From a virus: DNA of 38,957 nt. This document shows positions 3,064 to 38,957 of the stretch, in pieces. The stretch lies in IMG/VR virus record IMGVR_UViG_3300045988_085954; one strand, given 5' to 3'. Position numbers and translations under genes: made by a program. Position 1 is the stretch's first letter, and every line of letters starts with the position of its first letter. The notes under the pieces were generated by a model, which searched no databases, had not been told where the DNA came from, and saw only the letters and a program-made list of their open reading frames with translations.

Positions 3064-3684
3064 TTAGAAGTGTATCTTCCATTGCACCTCTCCACCATTG
3101 ACCTGTTGGTCTTTCAGTCCATAATGGGCTTCGAGCATGATGGAGTGGTTCCTATCATAGTTCCTCTGGACACTCAAAGGAATATAGGGGTTATCGTTCT
3201 GGACACCAATACCCGTGCCGACTTCCCAATTCTTGTAGGTGTTAATCTTATAGATACCTACGGGAATCTCAGGGTTGTCCTTCTGCTCCACGACAACCGT
3301 CCTATCGGTTTTCTCCAAGGCTTCAGGAGGGAGCGTAGAATCGCCTGTAGCGAGCTTTTCCTCAATGACCTTAACAGGACTATCCCCGTAGCTCACAACC
3401 TCCTTGTAGACCATCTCAGGCTGTCTCAGGCCATGCTGTGCTTCGATGATTCGCTTCTGCAATGTCTCTGCATTCTGCTTATTCAAGTTCAACTGGTTCC
3501 TGAGAGAGTTGAGGTCTTCTGCGTGTTTCTCATCCATAACCTTGACCTGTTGTGTCTTGTTGTCTACAGTCCTTTCAAGGGTGTTGACCCTCCATAAGAG
3601 GACACCCATGATAAAGATAGACAACAAAATAAGAAGCTCCTTCCAATGAGACAGGAAGAAGCTCTTAATCTGTTGCAATGCCAT
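3064..3684 (-). CDS. Membrane-anchored coiled-coil protein in the lysis cassette (possible spanin-like or lysis accessory protein)
   Basis: N-terminal transmembrane helix (LLILLSIFIMGVLLW), then a heptad-rich coiled coil, then a beta-rich C-terminal domain. It lies directly downstream of the endolysin. Confidence 0.3.
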   Translation of the reverse strand: MALQQIKSFFLSHWKELLILLSIFIMGVLLWRVNTLERTVDNKTQQVKVMDEKHAEDLNSLRNQLNLNKQNAETLQKRIIEAQHGLRQPEMVYKEVVSYGDSPVKVIEEKLATGDSTLPPEALEKTDRTVVVEQKDNPEIPVGIYKINTYKNWEVGTGIGVQNDNPYIPLSVQRNYDRNHSIMLEAHYGLKDQQVNGGEVQWKIHF

Positions 3685-3696
3685 ATTCTATTCTCC

Positions 3697-4185
3697 TTAC
3701 TGATTAGCGTACCAATTCGCCTTGCCAATGATGGTCGGAATCTCATGGTAGAGGTTGTCACCGGGACAATCCGTAGACATGAGGTCACGATGCCCAACGA
3801 TGTGCTCACCATCCATCGGGAGGCCATAGTCCGTGCAAAGGTTTGCCAGAAGCATCGCCGTGGATTCAATCTGTGCGTCCGTAGGCTCCGCTTCGCTGAA
3901 GTCACCACTCAGATGAATCCCCAACGTGTGCCAGTTCTCACCATAAGCGTGTGCGCCGATTTTCCAATGAGGACGCCCCTTCTCAATCGTGCCATCTTTG
4001 CGAATGACGTAATGATAACCAATGCCAGCCCATCCATTGTTCTTATGCCATCGATCGATTTCCTCTGCACTTGCATCAATATCAGCACCACCCGTATGAT
4101 GCAAGACAATCATGTCCGTCACCTCGCGATCACTCAAGGTACCATTGAATTGTAGATGGGTGTCCTTGATATTAACTCTTTCCAC
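3697..4185 (-). CDS. Endolysin, N-acetylmuramoyl-L-alanine amidase (Amidase_2 / T7-lysozyme fold)
   Basis: Zn ligands and catalytic residues of the Amidase_2/PGRP family are all present: VLHHTGG, GYHYVIRKDG, GAHAYGENWHTLGIHLSG, HIVGHRDLMSTDCPG. Confidence 0.85.
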   Translation of the reverse strand: MERVNIKDTHLQFNGTLSDREVTDMIVLHHTGGADIDASAEEIDRWHKNNGWAGIGYHYVIRKDGTIEKGRPHWKIGAHAYGENWHTLGIHLSGDFSEAEPTDAQIESTAMLLANLCTDYGLPMDGEHIVGHRDLMSTDCPGDNLYHEIPTIIGKANWYANQ

Positions 4186-4570
4186 TCTTATCCTCCTCCT
4201 TTTTTACTGTTACTTTCTCATCTGCCATCTGCTTCAGGCGAACCCGAAGAAACTCAGGGATGTATGCTCCATATCCCATGCGGTCTACGTTCTCTACAAG
4301 GCTCATTGCTTCAATGATAGCAAAGGCCGAGATGACCATTCCTCTGAAGATGTTCATGGACATCGCCATATCCAGAAGACACGCAATGATGATACAGAGG
4401 AAAATGCCTCCCTTCTTCATGAGACCTTTGGCACCTACGCGAGAACTGAGGGCACCTGTGCGATACCCTGCCGCTACCCCTGTGATGAAGTCCATGCACA
4501 TGAGGATAGCCAAGGCTTTGATGGGTGTGTCGATTCCCCCAAGGCAGAAGTCAAGGAATGCCCAAAGCAT
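4172..4570 (-). CDS. Holin (TcdE/holin_tox_secr-like)
   Basis: 132 aa with three hydrophobic segments and a charged C-terminus. The motif DFITGVAAGYRTGALSSRVGAKGLMKKGGIF resembles the toxin-secretion/phage-lysis holin family. It overlaps the endolysin start. Confidence 0.55.
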   Translation of the reverse strand: MLWAFLDFCLGGIDTPIKALAILMCMDFITGVAAGYRTGALSSRVGAKGLMKKGGIFLCIIIACLLDMAMSMNIFRGMVISAFAIIEAMSLVENVDRMGYGAYIPEFLRVRLKQMADEKVTVKKEEDKSGKS

Positions 4571-27275: not shown

Positions 27276-27297
27276 TCCCTGTCTTGTGTCTCACTTA
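27276..27297 (-). promoter_or_regulatory. Phage-RNAP promoter upstream of the small coiled-coil gene and the DNAP gene
   Basis: Plus strand tccctgtcttgtgtctcacttaa; the sense strand runs directly into the GGAGG ribosome-binding site. Confidence 0.55.
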
Positions 27298-29105
27298 ATA
27301 TCCGGCTTTGCGTAGTAACGCTTTGCGGCCTCTTTCTGCCGAGCGTCTGAGAAGTTCGTGATACGCTTCAGATAGCCTATGACACGTGTGCCATAGTCTA
27401 CATTCTCGCTACCACATTTCTTGCATGCTTTGCGCGTCACGGGGTCAATCGTTCCACAATCATTGCAGATGGTACAAAGGACATTGGTTGTCCAGTACGG
27501 TACGCCATTCTTGCTACAGAGCTTGAAGAGCGTTTTTGCCTGTTCGTAGGACGGAAGCTGTTCAAGGTTCAGATGAAGTGCTGAACCACCGTCAAGGGAA
27601 TCCGTGACCTCATGTGCATACATCTCAATCTTGTCAAGAACGGAAAGGTTGGTGTCTTCTACCCGATAGAAGTAAGAGTTATAGCAATCACGCTTGACAC
27701 CTGAAAAGCCATCTTCCTTATCCCACTTCGCATTTTTGACACCGAGATTTTCAGCGGGTACAAGTTCCGTGTTGAAGCGACAACCATAACGCTGAAGAGC
27801 TTTCTTGTTCTCATCCTTGAAGATACCAAGGACATTAGACACCCATTTCTTGTAGGTGTCATTGTTACTAATCTCGTAGCCATATCTTTCAGCCGCCTCT
27901 ACGAGACCATTCACGCCAATGGTAAGGAACTGCTTGTCGATGTCCATGAACCCGGCAGTATAGGCAGGGAGAAGCCCTGCTTTGATGTATTCTTTATAGA
28001 CGGCTTTAGAAGCCATCAGGTATTTATGGACATCTTGAATCTGCTCACGGAGTGTGTTTTCAAAGTCATCATGTCCACTGATTGCGAGGCGTGCCAGACG
28101 GTTCATGTTGATGGTAATGACCTGCGCTGAACCTGTCACGACACCACCTGCCCCGAGGCTGTAGCTGAAGGTGTTGTCTGCAAGCTCGTTACGGAGGCGA
28201 CAACACGAAGCAAGGGAATCTACGGAATCCGACATGTAGACAAAGAAGCTGTGTCCTTTGCTCATCTGCTCTGCACAGAAGTCTACGAACTGTGGGTCGA
28301 TGAATCCACCTTTACCGTCCGTCAGGATACTTGCGGTAAGCACTGGATACGTCAACAGTTCTTTGTGTCGCTCCTTGCGGAACCACTCCATGAAGAACTT
28401 CTGGAGTTCCATAAGGCTATCCATGTCAGGCTGAGTACCATCTGGATAGTAGAAGTTGCCAAACATCTCCTGCATGTACGGGCGGTCGAAGACCGAGATG
28501 TTCCAGAAGACACTCTGGTCACCCCGAGCAGAAGCAGGCTGATTCAAGCCGTAGACAACACCCTGAAGTTCCTGCTTGATTTCCTTTGCGTTGGTCTTCA
28601 GGTAGTCTTTGCCATACTGCTTGCGTGCGAAGTAGTCGAAGTAGTGAAGGAATTCCACGGTTGCTACTGCACCTGCGAAGTTGGAGGCCACCTGATAAAC
28701 AAGGTTGACAAAGGAACCACAGAAGGACTGAAGGTTCGTCGGGGCTTTCGAGACACCTCCCATGCATTTTGTACCTTCGAGCAGAAAGGGGTATAGCGTG
28801 ATAGAAGCACAGTACGGCTTCAGGGATGTCTCATCATGCACGTAAATAAAGTGTTCAGCGAGGTCGAGGAGGTAGTTGTTCCCTACCTCCCACCCGAACA
28901 TTTCTCGCACCTTATCCCGCACCATCGCCCGATTGAGTGTGATGGTATACGGTTTGTACATCTCTGCTTCCAGAGTTGCCAATGTCTTGCGCGTGACATT
29001 GGCATTGGCATCCACTTCGGAACCACTGGAAGCATTACTTGCCTCTGTATAAGAGCGGATGAAGTCGAGGCGGTCATTCATCTGACTAGTTGATAATGCT
29101 TTCAT
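27291..29105 (-). CDS. nrdD: Anaerobic ribonucleoside-triphosphate reductase NrdD (class III RNR)
   Basis: C-terminal Zn-ribbon CxxC...CxxC followed by the glycyl-radical motif RVIGYL. The ATG start at 29105 overlaps the nrdG stop as ATGA. Confidence 0.9.
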   Translation of the reverse strand: MKALSTSQMNDRLDFIRSYTEASNASSGSEVDANANVTRKTLATLEAEMYKPYTITLNRAMVRDKVREMFGWEVGNNYLLDLAEHFIYVHDETSLKPYCASITLYPFLLEGTKCMGGVSKAPTNLQSFCGSFVNLVYQVASNFAGAVATVEFLHYFDYFARKQYGKDYLKTNAKEIKQELQGVVYGLNQPASARGDQSVFWNISVFDRPYMQEMFGNFYYPDGTQPDMDSLMELQKFFMEWFRKERHKELLTYPVLTASILTDGKGGFIDPQFVDFCAEQMSKGHSFFVYMSDSVDSLASCCRLRNELADNTFSYSLGAGGVVTGSAQVITINMNRLARLAISGHDDFENTLREQIQDVHKYLMASKAVYKEYIKAGLLPAYTAGFMDIDKQFLTIGVNGLVEAAERYGYEISNNDTYKKWVSNVLGIFKDENKKALQRYGCRFNTELVPAENLGVKNAKWDKEDGFSGVKRDCYNSYFYRVEDTNLSVLDKIEMYAHEVTDSLDGGSALHLNLEQLPSYEQAKTLFKLCSKNGVPYWTTNVLCTICNDCGTIDPVTRKACKKCGSENVDYGTRVIGYLKRITNFSDARQKEAAKRYYAKPDIK

Positions 29106-29623
29106 GTTTGAAACAAATGCGTGCAATCTACGAAACGATTTTTCATCCTAACCAATTGGTATTTGTCGTAGATTACATCTGTCTCCTTCCTGTAAAATCT
29201 TTGGTTTGTTGTCGGGGAGGAAAGACCCCCAAGCTCTGCTTTGTAGCTCCCTGTCTTCAGCCATGTGATACCAGAGTGTTCTGCTATGTATGTGTTTGTC
29301 TCTTCATCATCAAGGCCACTATAGAGACACGTCGGGGCAATCTCTGAGAGATCGTCGAGTAATTTCAGCAAGTCTGGTGTGCTCATCTTGTTGCATGTGC
29401 CTCCCATCAGGACGATAGCATTCGCCCCGGACTCTATGGCATTCTCTGCCCCTCTCAAGACATCCTCAAGACTCGTAGGAGATTCCACTTCTTCCCATAG
29501 CTCTTTGCTGTGACAGCCTTTGCACCTCTGGGTACATGAGCCAAGCTCGATGAAATAAGCAATCTTGTCTGGTACCTCATTCAAGGTAATACCTGTGGAA
29601 ACAACAGGAACTAGAACTGACAA
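29102..29623 (-). CDS. nrdG: Anaerobic RNR activating protein NrdG (radical SAM); TTG start
   Basis: Radical-SAM motif CTQRCKGC. A GGAGG site sits 7 nt upstream of the TTG at 29623, inside the primase-helicase 3' end. The ATG-extended ORF to 29737 would overlap the primase gene by 127 nt, and 173 aa is the typical NrdG size. Confidence 0.8.
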   Translation of the reverse strand: MSVLVPVVSTGITLNEVPDKIAYFIELGSCTQRCKGCHSKELWEEVESPTSLEDVLRGAENAIESGANAIVLMGGTCNKMSTPDLLKLLDDLSEIAPTCLYSGLDDEETNTYIAEHSGITWLKTGSYKAELGGLSSPTTNQRFYRKETDVIYDKYQLVRMKNRFVDCTHLFQT

Positions 29624-31260
29624 TTTGAGTCCTCCTTTTCTGTCTTGATTTCTAAGGGGTCTACGTCCTCTATGGTGTTGGTCGATTTGTTGAACCTCAG
29701 GTACCCTGCGAGACCCGTGTTGCCTGTGAAGCGACATTTGAGTACCCTAAGTTTCAAGGTGTTCTTCATGTCTTCATCGTCGGCCTGTTGGTTTCTCTCA
29801 AGTGCCAAAATGGTGTCGGGTATCTGCTTGAGTGTACCTGAGCCACGGAGGTCATCAAGGGAAATCGTGCCCCCCTGTTCAAATGGAACTGTCTTTGTGT
29901 CCCCCTTGCGGAGGTGAGACACCACGACAATCCCTGCTCCTGTCTCTTCTACGAGTGCACGGAGCTTTGTCATGAGCATGTCAATGGCTTTGCGCTCATT
30001 GACGCTTGATTCATCGAGACCACTGACCGCTATGGATACGTGATCAAAGATGACAAAATCACAGCCTTCACCCGTGATAAGAAAGCGTATCTTCTCAAGG
30101 AGATTGTTTCCTTCAATCGACCCAAAGTGGTCATAAAGACAAAAGCCCCCATCACCAAATACGGCATCATAGACAGGCTTTAGTTCCTCTTTGTCTATGG
30201 TGTTCCATAAGAGGTGAAGGGGTTTTGCTACAGCAATGGACAGGAGGTCTCGAAGTGTCTTGTTCTTGTTCTCTTCGAGCATGACCATGCCCACTTTCAT
30301 ATTATCTTGCATCTCCAGTTTGAAAGCGATTTCTCGTGCCATCGTGGATTTGCCAATACCTGTACCTGCTGTGAGCAGAAGCATTTCGCCTTTGCGGATT
30401 CCCATTGTCATCTTTGTCAGGTCTTCTGCCCACGGGAAAGAATAAGAAGGAATCTCTGCCTCCTGTGAGAAGAACTCTTCCTTCAGGTCTTTGGCATTGA
30501 TGATACCATCTGGACGATATTCCCTAGCTTGCCAGATTGCACGGATGACCTCATCGGCCTTGCCATTCAAAAGGCACTCATTTGGGTCTTTCATTGGCAG
30601 GGTAGCAATCTTCAGCTTGTGGAGTGGCAGGATACCAGAGACAGACTTCACGGCCTCCTGACCCGCTTCATCCATGTCGAACATGACGATGACTTCATCA
30701 AACCCTGAGAGCCAATCGGCTTGAGCTTTGAAGACATCTTTTGCACTACGACAACCAAAAGGGATGGATACCACAGGGTATTTGTTGTCTTGCAACTGCG
30801 ATACCGTGAGACAATCAATCTCACCTTCTGTGATAATCAGTTTCTTGCCTGTCGAAAACAAATGCTGACCAAAGAAGATGTTGTCTTTCTTGCCACGAAC
30901 AATGAAGTTCTTCTCGCGATCTCGCGTCTTCTGAAAGATGACACGACCATCCTTGCGATAATCAGCGACTTGAATGGGTTGCCCGAAGTCGTTCTTTGAC
31001 AAGTGATAACCATACTTACGACAGGTGTCAGAGGTTATGCCTCTAGCCTTTAGTGGTCGAATCTCCATTTCAGATTCTGGAATGACAGGTAAATGCTTAG
31101 AGGACACAGACCTCCCTCCTTCTTCTTCTTTTTCATCTAGCCATGTAAACTTCTCGCAGACAAAACAAAATTTGTGGTCAGTATAGATGGTCGCTCCATC
31201 ACTACTGCCACAAAACTCACACGGTACATGGGCTTTGACAATCTCTGACACATAAATCAC
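29611..31260 (-). CDS. DNA primase-helicase (gp4-like)
   Basis: N-terminal Zn-finger CEFCGSS...CFVCEKF, TOPRIM region, and DnaB-type helicase with Walker A GTGIGKST. Confidence 0.9.
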   Translation of the reverse strand: MIYVSEIVKAHVPCEFCGSSDGATIYTDHKFCFVCEKFTWLDEKEEEGGRSVSSKHLPVIPESEMEIRPLKARGITSDTCRKYGYHLSKNDFGQPIQVADYRKDGRVIFQKTRDREKNFIVRGKKDNIFFGQHLFSTGKKLIITEGEIDCLTVSQLQDNKYPVVSIPFGCRSAKDVFKAQADWLSGFDEVIVMFDMDEAGQEAVKSVSGILPLHKLKIATLPMKDPNECLLNGKADEVIRAIWQAREYRPDGIINAKDLKEEFFSQEAEIPSYSFPWAEDLTKMTMGIRKGEMLLLTAGTGIGKSTMAREIAFKLEMQDNMKVGMVMLEENKNKTLRDLLSIAVAKPLHLLWNTIDKEELKPVYDAVFGDGGFCLYDHFGSIEGNNLLEKIRFLITGEGCDFVIFDHVSIAVSGLDESSVNERKAIDMLMTKLRALVEETGAGIVVVSHLRKGDTKTVPFEQGGTISLDDLRGSGTLKQIPDTILALERNQQADDEDMKNTLKLRVLKCRFTGNTGLAGYLRFNKSTNTIEDVDPLEIKTEKEDSNCQF

Positions 31261-31595
31261 CCTCTATGTACAAGAGGAAGGTTCAGTTCTTTCGAGAGCT
31301 CGAATAATACTTCATCTTGTATGTGGTTTACTGTATCTTTCCTATGCCCCATGACCAACACGCAGATATGGTCATCCCATCCATAGAGTGATGGGTCACA
31401 TACCTGATTCTGGGGCATTCCTGCTTCAAGGGTTCCGTCTGCGTGCAAGAGGTAGTTATATCCAATGCTGAACCACCCCTTCCGCATGACGTAACGTGCA
31501 TATTCTTTCATTGGCATATCATCTTCCGTGTAGTAGAGGACGATACCTTTGGTGCTTTCACGCTCCTTGAATTTCAAATTTGGTAACTGTTTCAT
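31257..31595 (-). CDS. T7-lysozyme (gp3.5) homologue lacking Zn ligands (probable RNAP-binding regulator, amidase-dead)
   Basis: FKERESTKGIVLYYT aligns with T7 FKQRESTDAIFVHCS, and GWFSIGYNYLLHADGTLEAG with GWLDVGYHFIIKRDGTVEAG. The T7 His17 Zn ligand is replaced by Tyr, and the C-terminal segment carrying the His/Cys ligands is absent (112 aa versus 151 aa). It occupies the gp3.5 position between endonuclease I and the primase-helicase. Confidence 0.65.
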   Translation of the reverse strand: MKQLPNLKFKERESTKGIVLYYTEDDMPMKEYARYVMRKGWFSIGYNYLLHADGTLEAGMPQNQVCDPSLYGWDDHICVLVMGHRKDTVNHIQDEVLFELSKELNLPLVHRG

Positions 31596-32035
31596 TTCTT
31601 TTTCTCCTTTTTCTCAAGGAGACCACTCGTAGGTTTTGGTTCCTCATGGAACCATGAAGCAGGTATCAGTTTCGTCGCGTACTGATAGCCATACTTTTGA
31701 CACCAATCGGCATAGGTTGTCTTCGACCCTTTGTACAAGGTGTTCTTAGGGTTTTGAAAGACAAACCTGATGTCGAGGTGCGGATATTGCTCTTTGATGA
31801 GCAGGTGCTTTTTCCGGTCGGCTGTCTCAAAGAGACCTTTGGCCTCAATGATAATGCCGTTCGGGAGGATGAAATCAGGAGTGTATGTATGGACACTCTC
31901 AGGAATCGTGTAGCGCAGATAGCGACATTCATAGACCTCTTTGCATTTCATGCTCTTAATCTGTGCCGCAATCTTGTCTTCGAGTCCTGAACGATGACCT
32001 AGGGAAGGCTTATAGCTCCATTTTCCTCCACGCAA
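31592..32035 (-). CDS. Endonuclease I (gp3-like Holliday-junction resolvase)
   Basis: YTPDFILPNGIIIEAKG matches the T7 gp3 catalytic segment YTPDFLLPNGIFVETKG. Confidence 0.85.
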   Translation of the reverse strand: MRGGKWSYKPSLGHRSGLEDKIAAQIKSMKCKEVYECRYLRYTIPESVHTYTPDFILPNGIIIEAKGLFETADRKKHLLIKEQYPHLDIRFVFQNPKNTLYKGSKTTYADWCQKYGYQYATKLIPASWFHEEPKPTSGLLEKKEKKK

Positions 32036-32043
32036 CAGACTTC

Positions 32044-32646
32044 TCAGAAGTCTTCTCCTTCCTCAGTCTCAAAAGGAACTTCGATGTTGTTGTCTTCCTC
32101 CGACTTGACGAATCCCTCTTCCTGACCAAAGCCAAGAGAGGACGCAGAAGCACTTCCCTCTTCCACAAGGTCAAGAATCTGAATGCCCGTCATACGCAAA
32201 GCAACGCCATAGTTCTTGTCATTGACATAGAACGGAGCAAGCTCGTAGGCAACCTTGCCTTTCGACCCATTGCCAATGCCTGTGACTTCATTCGAGATTT
32301 CATTGCAATGCGCATCAAAGATGGGAACATGACGCTCCCAATCACGACCATTGTTGCAATGGATGATATGGGTCATCTTGAACTTGAAGTATTCGTCTTC
32401 TTTGTATTCCTTGAGACCGTTTGCGTATTCATACTTGTATTTGTGGCGGCGTCCTTCCTCCGACTCCACAAACTTCTGCCACTCAGCTTCAATCTCCGCG
32501 AGGAGCTTCTTTTTGGCCTTCTCAGCCAGGCGAAGCATGAGCGTGAATTTGTTCGTTGACTGCCCCTTGAACTCTTCGGGTTTCAGGATGTGAGCAAAGA
32601 TGATTTCTCCTACTGCTGTGGTTCCTTTTTTCAGTTTGTTAGCCAT
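32044..32646 (-). CDS. ssDNA-binding protein (gp2.5-like)
   Basis: 200 aa with an acidic C-terminus ending in Phe (FETEEGEDF), the hallmark of T7 gp2.5. A phage promoter lies upstream. Confidence 0.75.
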   Translation of the reverse strand: MANKLKKGTTAVGEIIFAHILKPEEFKGQSTNKFTLMLRLAEKAKKKLLAEIEAEWQKFVESEEGRRHKYKYEYANGLKEYKEDEYFKFKMTHIIHCNNGRDWERHVPIFDAHCNEISNEVTGIGNGSKGKVAYELAPFYVNDKNYGVALRMTGIQILDLVEEGSASASSLGFGQEEGFVKSEEDNNIEVPFETEEGEDF

Positions 32647-33991: not shown

Positions 33992-36634
33992 TTATGCAAA
34001 ACAGAAATCTGATTTTGCCACTAAATCAAGGTCGAGAGTGCCAAACTTTGGTAACTCTGGTACTTCATCGAGATCATCAATAAGATAGCTCACGGACTCT
34101 AGGAATCCTGCGAGGTGATTCTGGTCTTTATAAAGACCAATAAATTCATCTCTGATAGTCTTGTAGAGACTCCCGGCATGGGCGGCATCTGTTCCGAAAC
34201 TGTCATGTATCATCATAAAGTTTCGATTGCCCTTCAGGTGCTCCGAGACCACTACCCTCTGTAGATGGCTTGCATCCATGCTATGAATGAAGTTGGGCGC
34301 TATGCCGTTCTGCTGTCTCCTATTGTCAATCTCATCGGTCTCCTCTTGATTGTAGAAGCGTACCTGAGAGCCATCAAAGCGCAACTTTATGCACTCTTGT
34401 CGCATCTTCATGTAGTTCTGCTGAACTAAGAAGCCGTTCGGCGTTGTCCATGAAACTACCTCTCCAGATTGGCAGATAAGTCTTGCAACCTTCTGCAACC
34501 ATTCCATACCTTCAACAGCCTTGACAACAGTTGTCGCTACAGCTTCCCATATCAATTTAGCCATGTAGACAGCGGCCTGATTAGTATTCAAGAATGGACT
34601 GTTGTCTGGATGGTCAAGGACATACGGGTGGATGATGTCGGTCAGCAAATTTTCCTTGAATCCATACTGCTTTGACCCATACGCCAAGGTCATTACTGAC
34701 CGCTTGCAGACCTTGCGGGTAATGCCATCCTTGCCAAACTTGATACGATTGAAGGCTACCCAATTCTGTGCGAGTGTCTTCGTTCCATACTTGTAGGAAT
34801 CGGAACCTTCTTTTTTCTCGTCCTCTGTCCCCGTCTGGACATCCTTGAGGAGCTGAACATTTACCTTATCAGCTACGATTGAATAGATGTCTTGCACCTT
34901 GTCCGAGGGTACGAGGTTTACGGCAAAACCACCTACCTCATCCCGGAGGAGGGCTGAGAAGTGTTGCAGGCCGGAGCATGTACCATCAAACGCCAAGGGC
35001 AGATTCGACATAAATCCCTTGACAGAACCACTGTTTTCTGCCTTGTAGTCATTTAGGCGTTTCCATTCGTGACAGAAGGACAAAAATTCCATCGGGTAAT
35101 CACCTTTAGACACCTCATACCACCATGTGTAACCTAGAGGGTCTTCTGCACTTGCGATAATATCGACTGTATGCTCCTTGACCCATGCTACACGGTCGGC
35201 AAATGCTATCTTGTCGTTACCTGCAAGGTTTGCGCCGTGGATAGCCATCCACTTGTCATCCCCTTCAGCCAATGGCGAAGGATTTGCGAACAGGAGCAGG
35301 GATTTCTGGATGTCATCCCCTTGCGGACTCAGCGCGGTCGGGATAGGATAGCAACGACCACGATAATCTACGTTCCACGGAAAGTAAATTTTGTCATACT
35401 CGCTGAACTTTTCGGCCACCTTGAGTGCCAAAAGGCATCTAAGGGCTTTGCTCTTGCGTGCTTCTTCCTGCTTGTAGAGGCCTACGGCTTTCTTTTTGTG
35501 CTCCTTCACTTGCTCTTCAGGCGCATCCTCTGGGAGGCGTGGGAGTGTCTGATACGGTTCCGTCCTAGGAACGCCACCGAGTTCACCACCAGACGCATAG
35601 ATTTCCTTGAGTGTCTGCAAGATAAATGGATTGATGATAAAAGGCGTATCCTGCATGGCATTGAGAGCGTCATAAACTACTCCAAGGTCAATCGCTGACA
35701 GTTTCTTATTGTAGGCTTTCAGAAACTTTGTTTTTGTCTGTACCTTCAGCCGGATGAGCTGAGTGCCTAGCACGGACTCGCCATAATAGCCTCCATCATG
35801 TGGGTCAGTCCAATGGCGCGGCGGAATAATAGTTGGCATGTAGCGGACTGCATTCGCAATCATGTGGGACTCGTTGCTTTCCCATGTAGCCTTAAACCAA
35901 TCCGTAGCATCCACAGCTTTGATATGCTTTGTCCCCCGGCCTGTGCTTACCTCCCTTTCACGAATGACATAGTAATCGGAGCCTGCAATGAGCATTTCAA
36001 GCACCTTTGCGCCTAGGACTTCTACCTGCTGATTTGACCAAGCGAGACCTACATATCCTTCCTTGTTCATGCGGTTTGTTGCATAGGCCACACGATAAGA
36101 CGAACGTACACGCTGTTCTATGCCTTTGTCCATTGACTTTTTCAGCCATTTGACATCTGTATCCTTGTTGACCTCTTCCCATTGATAGAAGCGTTCAATA
36201 TCCGCTTCTCGCTTGATTTGCATCCCAATCAGCATAGCCACATTGGATAGGGTGGTCTGTGTTGTATCATGCGACATCAACACGGCATCCATCGCCTTGC
36301 TGTGTCCGGCGAGGACTAGGAGGTCTTCCAAAGCCTCCTCTTTTTCCCGATAGATGACTAAAAGTTCTTTCATTGGCAGGAGCCAAGCGCCTTGCGTGGT
36401 CTTCTTAGGGTGCTTTGCGTCCTCTAGGAGAGCGTGGATATTCTTGCGGCATGTCTCCCATGAGTGCTTCATGAGCTTGCCTGCTAGGTGCCCTTCGCCG
36501 CCTTCTCCCTCGCGCTTTGCCTTGTCAAGAGCTTCCTTCAGGTGCTCCTCTGCTTCCTGCTTTGCCTCCGCTTCTAGGAGGAGCTCCTGTGTGTAGAGCC
36601 CTCCGTATAGCTTTTCATATTCTTCAAATTTCAT
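33992..36634 (-). CDS. Single-subunit DNA-directed RNA polymerase (T7 gp1-like)
   Basis: 880 aa. Motif A DGTCSGLQHFSA, motif C IHDSFGT and a C-terminal ...DFCFA match T7 RNAP. A TGGAGG ribosome-binding site is present. Confidence 0.95.
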   Translation of the reverse strand: MKFEEYEKLYGGLYTQELLLEAEAKQEAEEHLKEALDKAKREGEGGEGHLAGKLMKHSWETCRKNIHALLEDAKHPKKTTQGAWLLPMKELLVIYREKEEALEDLLVLAGHSKAMDAVLMSHDTTQTTLSNVAMLIGMQIKREADIERFYQWEEVNKDTDVKWLKKSMDKGIEQRVRSSYRVAYATNRMNKEGYVGLAWSNQQVEVLGAKVLEMLIAGSDYYVIREREVSTGRGTKHIKAVDATDWFKATWESNESHMIANAVRYMPTIIPPRHWTDPHDGGYYGESVLGTQLIRLKVQTKTKFLKAYNKKLSAIDLGVVYDALNAMQDTPFIINPFILQTLKEIYASGGELGGVPRTEPYQTLPRLPEDAPEEQVKEHKKKAVGLYKQEEARKSKALRCLLALKVAEKFSEYDKIYFPWNVDYRGRCYPIPTALSPQGDDIQKSLLLFANPSPLAEGDDKWMAIHGANLAGNDKIAFADRVAWVKEHTVDIIASAEDPLGYTWWYEVSKGDYPMEFLSFCHEWKRLNDYKAENSGSVKGFMSNLPLAFDGTCSGLQHFSALLRDEVGGFAVNLVPSDKVQDIYSIVADKVNVQLLKDVQTGTEDEKKEGSDSYKYGTKTLAQNWVAFNRIKFGKDGITRKVCKRSVMTLAYGSKQYGFKENLLTDIIHPYVLDHPDNSPFLNTNQAAVYMAKLIWEAVATTVVKAVEGMEWLQKVARLICQSGEVVSWTTPNGFLVQQNYMKMRQECIKLRFDGSQVRFYNQEETDEIDNRRQQNGIAPNFIHSMDASHLQRVVVSEHLKGNRNFMMIHDSFGTDAAHAGSLYKTIRDEFIGLYKDQNHLAGFLESVSYLIDDLDEVPELPKFGTLDLDLVAKSDFCFA

Positions 36635-36654
36635 ATACTTGTGCCTCCATCTGG

Positions 36655-36687
36655 TTTTTCTCTATCTTGTGTCTCACCTAAATTTGT
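36655..36687 (-). promoter_or_regulatory. Phage-RNAP promoter immediately upstream of the RNAP gene (autoregulatory), with an inverted core copy facing the plus-strand gene
   Basis: Plus strand ttttctctatcttgtgtctcacctaaatttg. Its inverted copy gtagacacaagg lies at 36695-36706, so cttgtgtct and agacacaag form a 9-bp inverted repeat with a 22-nt spacer. Confidence 0.55.
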
Positions 36688-36751
36688 ATTACATGTAGAC
36701 ACAAGGCTAACTATACAATTTGTAAAACATGTGGTAGCATGTTATAGGGTG

Positions 36752-37372
36752 ATGAAAATGGATTTTGATGAAAAAGATGAAGCTATCCGCTTTCGCCTTT
36801 CAACTAGCATGAAGAGGAAACTTCAACTCATTGCAATGCGTCGCGGTCTCAATATGTCCCAATTCATCCGCAATTACATTGAGACAATCATTAATGAGGA
36901 TGAGAATCAAGACATGCTTGCCGCGCGTGATGCTAGGTATCTAGTGAATCCAAAAGATGAGGATGAAAATCCTTATGGTTCTATTGTTTCCACGAGGGTG
37001 CCAACAGAATTGAAAACCTTGTATAATGCCTGCTGTTCCTCTAATAGCTTGAAAGCTAGCGAGCTTATACGGAACTTCATGCGCGACTATACGGAATTTA
37101 GATTGCAGATGTACCCCGGTCACCTAAGGTCTCTATCAGGGTATCTAAGCTATTTCCTGCTGTTCCTAAGGATGGCAGAGTACCACAAAGGGAAGGCTTT
37201 CAAGTCTTGCCGTATGGTACACGCAAAGAACAAGATCATACCAGATACACCTATCATAGAAAAAGTTACTGCCTGTACTTATCGCGTAAATGACATATTA
37301 GCGGACTGCTATTACATCATTGAATTTGAAGATATAACTAATGTGAATGTCTCTTTTTCTCCCTTTGACTGA
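36752..37372 (+). CDS. Tandem ribbon-helix-helix (RHH) DNA-binding protein, the only plus-strand gene
   Basis: Two RHH units: IRFRLSTSMKRKLQLIAMRRGLNMSQFIRNYIETII and IVSTRVPTELKTLYNACCSSNSLKASELIRNFMRDY, each with a beta-strand with alternating polar residues followed by two helices, then a C-terminal domain of about 90 aa. The start is ATG 36752 or 36758, after an AGGGTGA site. The gene is convergent with the early genes. Confidence 0.6.
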   Translation: MKMDFDEKDEAIRFRLSTSMKRKLQLIAMRRGLNMSQFIRNYIETIINEDENQDMLAARDARYLVNPKDEDENPYGSIVSTRVPTELKTLYNACCSSNSLKASELIRNFMRDYTEFRLQMYPGHLRSLSGYLSYFLLFLRMAEYHKGKAFKSCRMVHAKNKIIPDTPIIEKVTACTYRVNDILADCYYIIEFEDITNVNVSFSPFD

Positions 37373-37382
37373 TACCTACACA

Positions 37383-37415
37383 CGAGACACAAGCAACTTT
37401 TTACCTTGTGTCTCG
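37383..37415. other. Perfect 11-bp-stem hairpin between convergent genes, built from the phage-promoter core
   Basis: cgagacacaag (37383-37393), loop caactttttac, cttgtgtctcg (37405-37415). It sits between the RHH-gene stop (37372) and the SprT-like gene stop (37432). Confidence 0.6.
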
Positions 37416-37431
37416 CCTTGCAGGAGCTGTT

Positions 37432-38892: not shown

Positions 38893-38957
38893 CTGTGACT
38901 AGCCCGGCTAGCCTCCCTTTGGTTACCTAAGGACGATGGCAACAACCAGACTTGCTA
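38893..38957. repeat. 65-bp exact direct terminal repeat (copy 2)
   Basis: Identical to 1-65. Confidence 0.8.

Follow-up and report, generated by a model that had tools for sequence, protein, structure and literature searches.

T7 lysozyme (gp3.5) is the textbook moonlighting phage protein, acting both as a cell-wall amidase and as an allosteric inhibitor of the RNA polymerase (RNAP). To our knowledge, RNAP inhibition by gp3.5 proteins has been documented in Studiervirinae only, and RNAP binding is the sole second function of gp3.5 that we know of. Amidase-negative T7 lysozyme with substitutions at K128 ('LysY'; Cheng et al. 1994 and commercial strains) reportedly still inhibits RNAP. The RNAP-interaction domain of T7 lysozyme (T7L) comprises residues 2-52 and inhibition is zinc-independent (PMC5445346). 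The N-terminal tail is needed for RNAP inhibition, and the lysozymes of phi15 and Pf-10 inhibit the RNAPs of their phages (PMC10138996). A short gp3.5-like protein of the Aeromonas phage PZL-Ah152, Lys 17, was published as a phage endolysin and not as a regulator (PMC12817945). In the limited collection of literature that was searched, no described truncated or inactive gp3.5 regulator was found.

The window analysed here is the whole stretch of 38,957 nucleotides of the IMG/VR virus record IMGVR_UViG_3300045988_085954. It contains the following cluster of DNA-metabolism genes:

32044..32646, minus strand: gp2.5-like ssDNA-binding protein (SSB); weak Pfam matches to Enc34_ssDNA-bd and SBB_T7, position conserved
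31592..32035, minus strand: endonuclease I (T7 gene 3 homologue); PF05367, E 4.9e-57
31257..31595, minus strand: short gp3.5/T7-lysozyme orthologue; Amidase_2/PGRP fold without zinc ligands and without the catalytic C-terminal segment
29611..31260, minus strand: primase-helicase (T7 gene 4 homologue); Helic-prim_T7_N, Toprim_2 and DnaB_C

This order, in which the SSB-like protein has an acidic C-terminus with F as the last residue, is that of T7 genes 2.5-3-3.5-4. The short ORF encodes 112 aa from an ATG start, on the minus strand, which was absent from the earlier note on this DNA. An AAGGAG Shine-Dalgarno sequence is located 8 nt upstream of the ATG, the ATG overlaps the endonuclease I stop codon, and the primase-helicase starts at or just after the stop codon of the short gene. 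The slot between endonuclease I and primase-helicase is kept in every relative examined (including loci L001-L011, L113-L125 and L134-L139), SSB position and endonuclease I synteny are likewise conserved in the relatives examined, and a single-subunit RNAP is encoded in all genomic contexts recovered with the short gene; about 30 genomes have both (among them L002, L006, L008-L011, L113-L125 and L134-L139). Judged from sequence, the short gene is the T7 gene 3.5 orthologue of a large uncultured T7-like phage group of anaerobes, and the window phage is taken to be one that infects gut anaerobes. A megablast search of the region against deposited phages gave no match. In 50,697 phage records, the short family was absent by tblastn with the window protein and the distant member P0136; the matches were confined to the N-terminal region of amidase or lysozyme genes of the gp3.5 type, which were mostly full-length, the exceptions being short Aeromonas forms. 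The locus searches were run with narrower sub-alignments of the family, as the broad family alignments were too divergent.

Among solved structures, the best sequence match of the 112-aa protein is T7 lysozyme (1aro_L; E 1.4e-6, query residues 6-67 versus T7L 3-68). An AF2 model (pLDDT 90.9, pTM 0.82) was compared with the PDB using Foldseek, and T7 lysozyme was again the best match (1aro_L; E 2e-8, TMq 0.77), covering about three-quarters of the target fold (TMt 0.60); the top 40 matches all belong to Amidase_2/PGRP. The model thus shows the protein in a predicted fold that corresponds to the N-terminal three-quarters of a T7-lysozyme/PGRP amidase domain. The Pfam profile Amidase_2 (PF01510) does not match the 112-aa protein even at E ≤ 10, and matches 6 of 39 short-family members at E ≤ 0.01. 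No PHROG or Pfam family is reserved for the short form; of these 39 members, 30 were placed in phrog_822 'amidase'.

In comparison with T7 lysozyme (151 aa; 1LBA, 1ARO chain L), which occupies the same slot after endonuclease I, the window protein retains the F-K-x-R-E-x-T arm, helix 1 and the G-Y-(H/N) strand, i.e., the reported RNAP-contact region of residues 2-52. In contrast, the zinc site is missing. The His17 column (T7 numbering) holds Tyr, the His122 column holds Arg, and the chain stops near T7 position 122-124, before Lys128, Cys130 and the C-terminal helix are reached. Close to the C-terminus (LVHRG, two residues before the end) there is a His, but it misses the His122 column by one position and is not conserved among relatives. 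In the alignment of 37 short members, His is found in the His17 column in eight and in the His122 column in one, while Cys130 occurs in none; in the full-length references, His17, His122 and Cys130 are retained throughout. Tyr46 is kept in the window protein, and its column is Tyr in 22/37 and Phe in 11/37 members. The alignment shows that all three zinc ligands and Lys128 have been lost, and the protein is predicted to have no amidase activity. The earlier note had described the protein in the gp3.5 position as a T7-lysozyme homologue with Tyr in place of His17 and without the C-terminal His/Cys ligands; both statements agree with the best sequence and fold matches and with a chain that stops just before the His122/Lys128/Cys130 segment.

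A protein whose chain breaks off right at the expected start of the catalytic segment, and which Pfam Amidase_2 fails to recognise, could be a pseudogene remnant or a full-length amidase interrupted by a sequencing or assembly frameshift. However, the same slot holds the short form in two or more T7-like clades which are uncultured and deeply divergent, and the whole profile is matched by about 35 clusters at 50% identity, 102-131 aa in length. Relatives at 57-63% identity share the short length, and it is repeated in independent ENA, Logan and IMG/VR assemblies at 25-96% identity. The fold prediction is confident, and the dN/dS values of 0.09, 0.06 and 0.16, obtained for pairs with unsaturated dS, show strong purifying selection on the aligned coding sequences. 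The T7L C-terminal segment is encoded neither in the three frames downstream of the stop codon nor elsewhere in a six-frame scan of the whole window (local scores of 17-36 are noise); the sequence downstream is the primase gene. The frameshift which the earlier note had named as a refutation therefore fails, the short gene is genuine, and the pseudogene or frameshift reading, refuted by these comparative data, is barely credible.

Compared with active amidases, the conservation of the short family is inverted in the alignments. The N-terminal arm (T7 positions 2-13) has a mean BLOSUM62 score of 1.95 in the short family versus 0.40 in full-length amidases, whereas the segments of the catalytic cleft score 0.54 versus 2.56, 0.70 versus 2.57 and 0.66 versus 2.30. 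Thus, the arm is tightened, with its F-K-x-R-E-x-T motif common to the 112-aa protein and T7 lysozyme, and the cleft is relaxed. The short family also has conserved residues of its own, the GW(D/E)D(H) and A-D motifs, which are absent from active amidases.

A second Amidase_2 protein is encoded in the window in a late lysis cassette:

4172..4570, minus strand: holin, first gene of the late lysis cassette; Phage_holin_4_1, PF05105, E 1.7e-27
3697..4185, minus strand: late endolysin, Amidase_2 with zinc ligands intact, 162 aa; PF01510, E 9e-25
3064..3684, minus strand: candidate spanin-equivalent, 206 aa, after the endolysin; N-terminal transmembrane helix and coiled coil

As stated in the earlier note, this is a separate, ligand-intact amidase beside a holin: it scores 88 bits with PF01510 (cutoff 26), H17/Y46/H122/C130 are all intact, and the start of its gene overlaps the 3' end of the Phage_holin_4_1 gene. 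The 206-aa protein has no Pfam match; its homologues adjoin the endolysin in 22 of 79 loci, accompany it in non-T7 contigs and are also present in the cassettes of relatives. A late holin and endolysin cassette near the terminase genes is known from phiKMV/SP6-type Autographiviridae, whose RNAPs also have no lysozyme-docking insertion; unlike the window group, which keeps a truncated copy under purifying selection, these phages have lost gene 3.5 entirely.

The earlier note had explained the two proteins by duplication within the phage, in which a bifunctional gp3.5 gave rise to an amidase copy beside the holin and an RNAP-regulator copy. Both have the Amidase_2 fold, both match phrog_822, and they share 37% identity over 63 residues. 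The 112-aa protein, however, aligns just as well with T7 lysozyme (44.7 bits) as with the late endolysin (45.1 bits), and the latter scores nearer to clostridial LysC-type amidases (6srt) than to T7L. Homologues of the late endolysin with 67-72% identity are found in Selenomonas chromosomes and many non-T7 viral contigs, and 76 of the 79 viral loci with a homologue have no T7-type core genes. Close relatives have a GH25 muramidase in the late slot (contig 177249 carries both the short gene and the GH25 muramidase), others a different Amidase_2. These comparisons show that the lysis-cassette enzyme is interchangeable, with Amidase_2 here and GH25 muramidase in relatives, and by its homologues the late endolysin is part of a host-lineage (Selenomonas-type) module and no recent paralogue of the short gene. 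Subfunctionalisation after duplication is contradicted by the relatives of the endolysin and the GH25 enzyme in the late slot, and we consider it very improbable. The host is probably a member of the Selenomonadaceae because the endolysin homologues are named Selenomonas or Selenomonadaceae; a prophage search with the family alignment in 185,579 reference genomes found nothing.

The short protein itself might still assist lysis, by zinc-independent binding or cleavage of the wall or by an activity at the membrane. A homologue treated in this way in the literature is Lys 17 of PZL-Ah152 (relatives T7-Ah and PZL-Ah8; cultured Studiervirinae), a ligand-less gp3.5 remnant of 104 aa at the same slot, which keeps the arm KVKFKKREQT and has a separate hydrolase, a Peptidase_M15_4 ORF, immediately downstream. 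It differs from the window protein in being an independent and more severe truncation, which diverges after about residue 72 and has no TDAQ helix, and the PZL-Ah152 RNAP keeps the finger insertion and a T7-type docking surface. Lower CFU were reported when permeabilisation with EDTA or citrate was combined with Lys 17, but neither the protein by itself nor a mixture of it with holin was active (PMC12817945), and EDTA would strip a zinc amidase. Such proteins are named 'lysozyme' in databases, and Tyr46 is kept in the window protein and most members as described; on the other hand, the zinc ligands and Lys128 are all missing or variable and evolutionary constraint on the cleft segments is relaxed. 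Each genome has a bona fide hydrolase in another gene (M15 beside Lys 17, Amidase_2 or GH25 in the late cassettes), and the N-terminus MKQLPNLKFKERESTK of the window protein is hydrophilic, without a signal peptide. A residual lytic helper is therefore improbable.

The presumed target of the short protein and two copies of a promoter-like motif are located as follows:

33992..36634, minus strand: single-subunit T7-type RNAP, 880 aa; PF00940, E 1.9e-98, and PF14700
36662..36679, minus strand: promoter-like motif copy, 28-45 nt upstream of the RNAP start codon
32702..32719 (coordinates of the plus-strand match; functional orientation that of the genes, minus): promoter-like motif copy upstream of the SSB/endonuclease I/short gene/primase cluster

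The phage-specific motif is of the sequence type TAAGGTGAGACACAAGACAG, also given as a TAAGGTGAGACACAAGACAGAG-type promoter, and is present in the window in eight copies versus 0.12 expected, in a single orientation throughout. Placed upstream of the cluster, the site would serve the phage RNAP, and the short gene appears to be co-transcribed from it with SSB, endonuclease I and primase. The copy before the RNAP gene suggests possible autogenous transcription of the RNAP.

The window RNAP is 37-38% identical to T7 RNAP and ends in DFCFA. Using a list of 17 lysozyme-contact residues of T7 RNAP taken from a secondary source (PMC5445346), none is identical in the window RNAP (clade range 0-4/17), which also lacks the finger insertion 712-724 of T7 RNAP. 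For comparison, 10/17 contacts are kept in the RNAPs of phi15 and Pf-10, 8/17 in PZL-Ah152, 1/17 in phiKMV and 0/17 in SP6. Distant phages with a full-length amidase in the gp3.5 slot keep 4-5/17, so that the contact test is weak outside Studiervirinae. As to the suggestion of the earlier note that the truncated copy would be an RNAP regulator only, the 112-aa protein, aligned to T7L 3-68, retains the 2-52 interaction region, including FKxRExT, while the contact residues of the polymerase do not correspond.

Several observations speak for regulation, namely synteny, purifying selection, the retained 2-52 region, the specifically conserved arm and the promoter-like site before the RNAP gene; a further one is the independent ligand-less gp3.5 remnant of PZL-Ah152, which occurs together with a T7-type docking surface on the RNAP. 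Others speak against it: the window RNAP resembles those of the lysozyme-less phages SP6 and phiKMV in its absent contacts and finger insertion, and the CFU drop with Lys 17 (PMC12817945) makes a wall or membrane activity of short forms possible.

With the docking surface for T7 lysozyme not conserved on the window RNAP, the short protein may instead be a neofunctionalised binding module for a partner other than RNAP (a replisome component, a host protein or cytoplasmic muropeptides) without any control of transcription. The gene is translationally coupled through overlapping stop and start codons and packed among DNA-metabolism genes, and the motifs peculiar to the family are a further point in favour. 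Non-catalytic PGRPs (PGRP-SA, -LC and -LE) likewise have an Amidase_2/PGRP fold without zinc ligands and bind only; they indicate that the fold is usable as a pure binder (PMC8124813). These PGRPs are, however, receptors of full length that are secreted or membrane-bound and have an intact peptidoglycan groove, whereas the short protein is predicted to be cytoplasmic and its C-terminal third is missing. The missing segment forms part of the peptidoglycan groove, and the 112-aa protein thus has neither a complete groove nor the means of envelope export. The conservation most specific to the family is that of the N-terminal arm, the RNAP-inhibitory element in T7, and a single-subunit RNAP accompanies the gene in all contexts. 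Since no second function of gp3.5 apart from RNAP binding is known to us, we regard a different partner as unlikely, though it is the alternative to be taken most seriously.

RNAP regulation is the most parsimonious function of the short protein, plausible but unproven. Our main reading, to which we assign a probability of roughly 55%, is that the gene is a gp3.5 orthologue which lost the amidase after takeover by a lysis cassette and was kept as a predicted RNAP regulator. The acquired cassette would have taken over cell-wall cleavage, making the amidase half of gp3.5 dispensable, and this half was presumably then lost. The short protein would have survived by binding the single-subunit RNAP of the phage with the N-terminal arm and the adjacent surface and thereby damping transcription. 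As the RNAP gene of this phage has a phage promoter-like site in front of it, such a brake would be of particular use. The contact surface on the RNAP side differs from that of T7, and any contact would therefore use a re-made interface. RNAP inhibition without amidase, as in the LysY-type variants, is the state proposed here as natural and long-lived; those variants are full-length point mutants acting on T7 RNAP, whereas here the catalytic segment is deleted, the deletion is ancestral to whole clades and inhibition is predicted.

More broadly, the short proteins may constitute a natural and widespread class of regulators that are free of amidase activity and act on single-subunit phage RNAPs without a T7-type docking surface, an extension which we put forward tentatively, at somewhat less than even odds. 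If it is true, lysozyme-type control of RNAP would be ancestral beyond Studiervirinae, in a much larger share of the T7 supergroup, and would operate via a re-made interface. Ready-made non-lytic orthogonal pairs of RNAP and inhibitor would then be available, and several 'lysozymes' treated as endolysins, e.g., Lys 17 of PZL-Ah152, would in fact be transcription regulators. If the short proteins do inhibit their RNAPs, new orthogonal expression systems could draw on them as repressors that are non-toxic by nature. Automated pipelines put the labels 'amidase', 'lysozyme' and 'endolysin' on these short proteins, and at least one short form has been studied as an enzybiotic, which is probably the wrong target.

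For the phages themselves, the short proteins are markers of a T7-like lineage which is uncultured, infects anaerobes (probably Negativicutes) and has modular lysis cassettes. A natural separation of function has seemingly occurred repeatedly: once lysis is handled by another hydrolase, the catalytic third disappears, whereas the N-terminal part persists over long times under strong selection. This suggests that the non-lytic role of gp3.5 is the indispensable one.

The window was found to be a complete T7-like phage genome (38,957 bp, 47% GC) with every gene on the minus strand. Its 65-bp exact direct terminal repeat (1-65 and 38893-38957) could be a genuine terminal redundancy of the T7 type or an overlap left by the assembly of a circularised contig; the genome looks complete under both readings. 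A dUTPase, a DUF3310 protein, a family A DNA polymerase, a T7-type terminase, a gp2.5-like SSB, endonuclease I and a primase-helicase are encoded, together with the following features:

31257..31595, minus strand: short gene, 112 aa, ATG start, AAGGAG 8 nt before the ATG
33992..36634, minus strand: single-subunit RNA polymerase (RNAP; PF00940, E 2e-98)
27291-29126 and 29102-29737, both minus strand: anaerobic ribonucleotide reductase NrdD and a radical-SAM activase-like protein
3697..4185, minus strand: late endolysin, 162-aa Amidase_2 (E 9e-25), all ligands intact
3064-3684, minus strand: 206-aa protein following the late endolysin, with an N-terminal transmembrane helix, a coiled coil and a beta-rich C-terminal domain

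The start of the short gene overlaps the endonuclease I stop, and SSB, endonuclease I, short gene and primase-helicase follow one another as do T7 genes 2.5, 3, 3.5 and 4. NrdD and the activase-like protein form an anaerobe-type nucleotide-metabolism set in a T7-like genome; the related loci L001-L005 also have ThyX, an FeThRed_B-like protein and a dUTPase. The approximately 0.8 kb between the SprT-like and RNAP genes (36635-37431) contain no minus-strand ORF of more than 60 aa and could accommodate small early genes or regulatory sequences.

The best solved-structure sequence match of the short protein is T7 lysozyme (1aro_L, E 1.4e-6; residues 6-67 against T7 residues 3-68). It also matches phrog_822, the PHROG for T7-type amidases (E 6e-8), and has no match to Pfam Amidase_2 even at E ≤ 10. 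An AlphaFold2 model built from 39 family sequences was confident (pLDDT 90.9, pTM 0.82), and Foldseek placed it closest, among PDB entries, to the T7 lysozyme chain of the RNAP complex (E 2e-8, TMq 0.77, TMt 0.60); thus, the entire 112-aa chain corresponds to the first three-quarters of the amidase fold. In T7 lysozyme numbering, Tyr occupies the His17 column and the chain stops at about position 122-124, which leaves it without Lys128, Cys130 and the C-terminal helix. Close to its end, a His lies one column away from His122; relatives lack this His. The protein is a gp3.5 orthologue by synteny, fold and N-terminal arm, and does not qualify as a zinc amidase on the Pfam threshold, the ligands or Lys128. 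This agrees with the earlier note, which had described a T7-lysozyme homologue without a zinc site in the gp3.5 position and a separate, intact Amidase_2 beside a holin; the late endolysin gene indeed overlaps the end of a Phage_holin_4_1 gene.

The short form recurs. A word-indexed search of 5.8 billion proteins returned four clusters, all of 108-112 aa and 59-96% identity, on contigs with the same synteny. In an exhaustive profile search of 1.84 billion cluster representatives, about 35 of the 71 matches had 102-131 aa and aligned end-to-end with the profile. In IMG/VR, short proteins occupy the same slot in close relatives (L008-L011), in more distant NrdD-carrying phages (L113-L125; RNAPs 54-69% identical to that of the window) and in a second, far more divergent clade without NrdD (L134-L139; RNAPs about 38% identical). 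A full-length amidase is found at the slot in the more distant T7-likes L126-L128. Values of dN/dS, taken only where synonymous sites were unsaturated, were 0.09 (window and L010), 0.06 (L002 and L001) and 0.16 (L011 and L006). The earlier note had considered a frameshift behind which a full Amidase_2 domain might lie; the missing C-terminal segment is encoded neither in any frame downstream of the stop nor anywhere else in the window. The recurring length, the shared synteny, dN/dS of 0.06-0.16 and the lack of a downstream segment make both an artefact and a decaying remnant very improbable. One short gene (L125 3986-4381) carries a 22-aa internal insertion resembling primase-helicase sequence and a duplicated C-terminal segment, and is probably an assembly chimera.

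Among 37 short members, the His17 column holds His in eight and otherwise V, Y, F, S, A, L, T, C or E; His122 is retained in one and Cys130 in none, and the C-termini cluster at T7 positions 120-131. All full-length references, including the late endolysin of the window, keep H17, Y46, H122 and C130. Conservation in the short family is inverted relative to the active enzymes.

Segment conservation (mean pairwise BLOSUM62 score) in the short family and in full-length amidases
Beta1 (with His17): short family 0.54; full-length amidases 2.56
Loop 59-75: short family 0.70; full-length amidases 2.57
Beta5 (with His122): short family 0.66; full-length amidases 2.30
N-terminal arm (T7 positions 2-13): short family 1.95; full-length amidases 0.40

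Within the short family, arm conservation is exceeded only by the G-Y-H strand; R8 is present in 44/44 sequences, T11 in 42/44, and F or Y at F5 in 39/44. P0169, a full-length gp3.5-like protein of 150 aa from the profile search, keeps His17 and has Pro, Asp and Ser for H122, K128 and C130; its zinc site is gone without truncation, and it may represent an intermediate state.

For the late endolysin, the earlier note had proposed subfunctionalisation after duplication, which did not hold up. By score, clostridial LysC-type amidases (6srt, E 2.6e-25) are nearer to the enzyme than T7 lysozyme is (E 7.9e-20). Its homologues at E ≤ 1e-20 number 1,748 and include proteins of 67-72% identity from Selenomonas sp. 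AB3002, S. dianae and a Selenomonadaceae MAG; 76 of 79 IMG/VR loci with homologues lack T7-type core genes in the vicinity. Alignment of the short protein gives equivalent scores with the late endolysin (45.1 bits) and with T7 lysozyme (44.7 bits). Decisive against a duplication, which is improbable, are enzyme swaps in relatives whose terminase is 74-88% identical: a GH25 muramidase (PF01183) occupies the late slot in L104, L105, L107 and L111 (Pfam scan) and in L109 and L110 (the same protein, by inspection of translations), and L106 has a different 202-aa Amidase_2. Contig IMGVR_UViG_3300045988_177249 combines a 105-aa short gp3.5-like gene (L114 2095..2412) with a GH25 endolysin (L111 4206..4775). 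The late cassette is therefore an exchangeable module of the host lineage, and the dead gp3.5 is older than, and independent of, whichever enzyme fills it.

The 206-aa protein, encoded between the late endolysin and the terminase genes, has no Pfam match. Its homologues accompany endolysin homologues in 22/79 viral loci and also stand beside GH25 in the relatives' cassettes; it is a candidate spanin-equivalent for diderm Firmicutes (Negativicutes). Further observations in relatives were a reverse transcriptase (PF00078) just upstream of the holin (L104 3964-5277), a C5 cytosine methylase between the spanin-like gene and the small terminase (L111 5339-6724), and insertions of about 0.8 kb in the large terminase gene, one in L111 (7001-9482) and two in L112 (798-4078), for which introns, inteins or homing endonucleases are possible explanations. 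The left end of L006 (1-1048) encodes a tyrosine integrase, a hint that one member may be temperate.

The two functions of T7 lysozyme are separable: RNAP inhibition, unlike the amidase, does not require zinc, and residues 2-52 make up the RNAP-interaction region (PMC5445346). The N-terminal tail is needed for inhibition, point changes in it alter inhibition strength, and lysozymes of phi15, Pf-10 and other phages inhibit their own RNAPs (PMC10138996). Residues 2-52 are exactly what the short family retains, and a single-subunit RNAP is encoded in every context recovered. On this comparative evidence, the short protein is somewhat more probably an RNAP regulator than not (roughly 0.55), and would work like amidase-negative T7 lysozyme.

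A promoter-like motif, CTGTCTTGTGTCTCACYT on the plus strand (coding strand approximately TAAGGTGAGACACAAGACAG), occurs eight times (0.12 expected by chance), always oriented with the genes and at gene-cluster boundaries:

1054, 14152, 18952, 27279, 32702, 33706, 33900 and 36662: 18-nt plus-strand matches, functional orientation minus

The motif probably serves as promoter for the phage RNAP. One of the copies stands before the cluster of SSB, endonuclease I, short gene and primase, a place like that of phi2.5 before the equivalent T7 cluster. A further copy, 28-45 nt before the RNAP start codon, suggests autogenous RNAP transcription, unlike in T7. Such a site would create positive feedback, under which an RNAP brake would be useful.

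Evidence against an RNAP-regulator role comes from the RNAP itself. Among 17 T7 RNAP residues reported to contact lysozyme (PMC5445346), none is identical in the window enzyme (37-38% overall identity), and RNAPs of short-carrying clades keep 0-4. The T7 finger insertion 712-724 is absent, as in SP6 and phiKMV, phages without gene 3.5 (0/17 and 1/17); phi15 and Pf-10 keep 10/17. The 1ARO interface is therefore not simply transferable to the window RNAP. Binding of a different partner by the short protein, which these losses would favour, is rather unlikely. Even where distant phages have a full-length amidase in this place, just 4-5/17 contacts are kept, so the count is a low-power test outside the Studiervirinae; it nevertheless leaves RNAP binding in this clade an inference.

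An independent natural case supports the reasoning behind an RNAP-regulating short form. The cultured Studiervirinae member Aeromonas phage PZL-Ah152 (MW671054) has a ligand-less gp3.5 remnant with the arm KVKFKKREQT kept:

L144 2495-2809: annotated 'lysozyme' (published endolysin Lys 17), 104 aa, lacking zinc ligands
L144 2802-3143: unannotated Peptidase_M15_4 ORF directly after the Lys 17 gene, overlapping its end; probably the real endolysin

With 8/17 contacts and the finger insertion kept, its RNAP resembles those of phi15 and Pf-10, for which inhibition has been shown experimentally. In a J Virol 2025 study, the 104-aa protein was taken to be the endolysin; it was inactive alone or mixed with holin and lowered CFU only after EDTA or citrate (PMC12817945). 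This effect leaves room for some envelope-directed activity; it is weak evidence and fits a zinc amidase poorly, and residual lytic activity of the short form is improbable.

Non-catalytic PGRPs offer a conceptual parallel but, unlike the short protein, are full-length and extracellular; in phiKMV- and SP6-type phages the alternative outcome is seen, gene 3.5 being lost entirely. Short forms are already in databases as 'lysozyme' or 'amidase', and no description of a natural amidase-free gp3.5 family, or of a regulatory role for one, was found in the literature searched. The short family looks like a clear natural case of separation of function, with practical consequences for annotation and synthetic biology.
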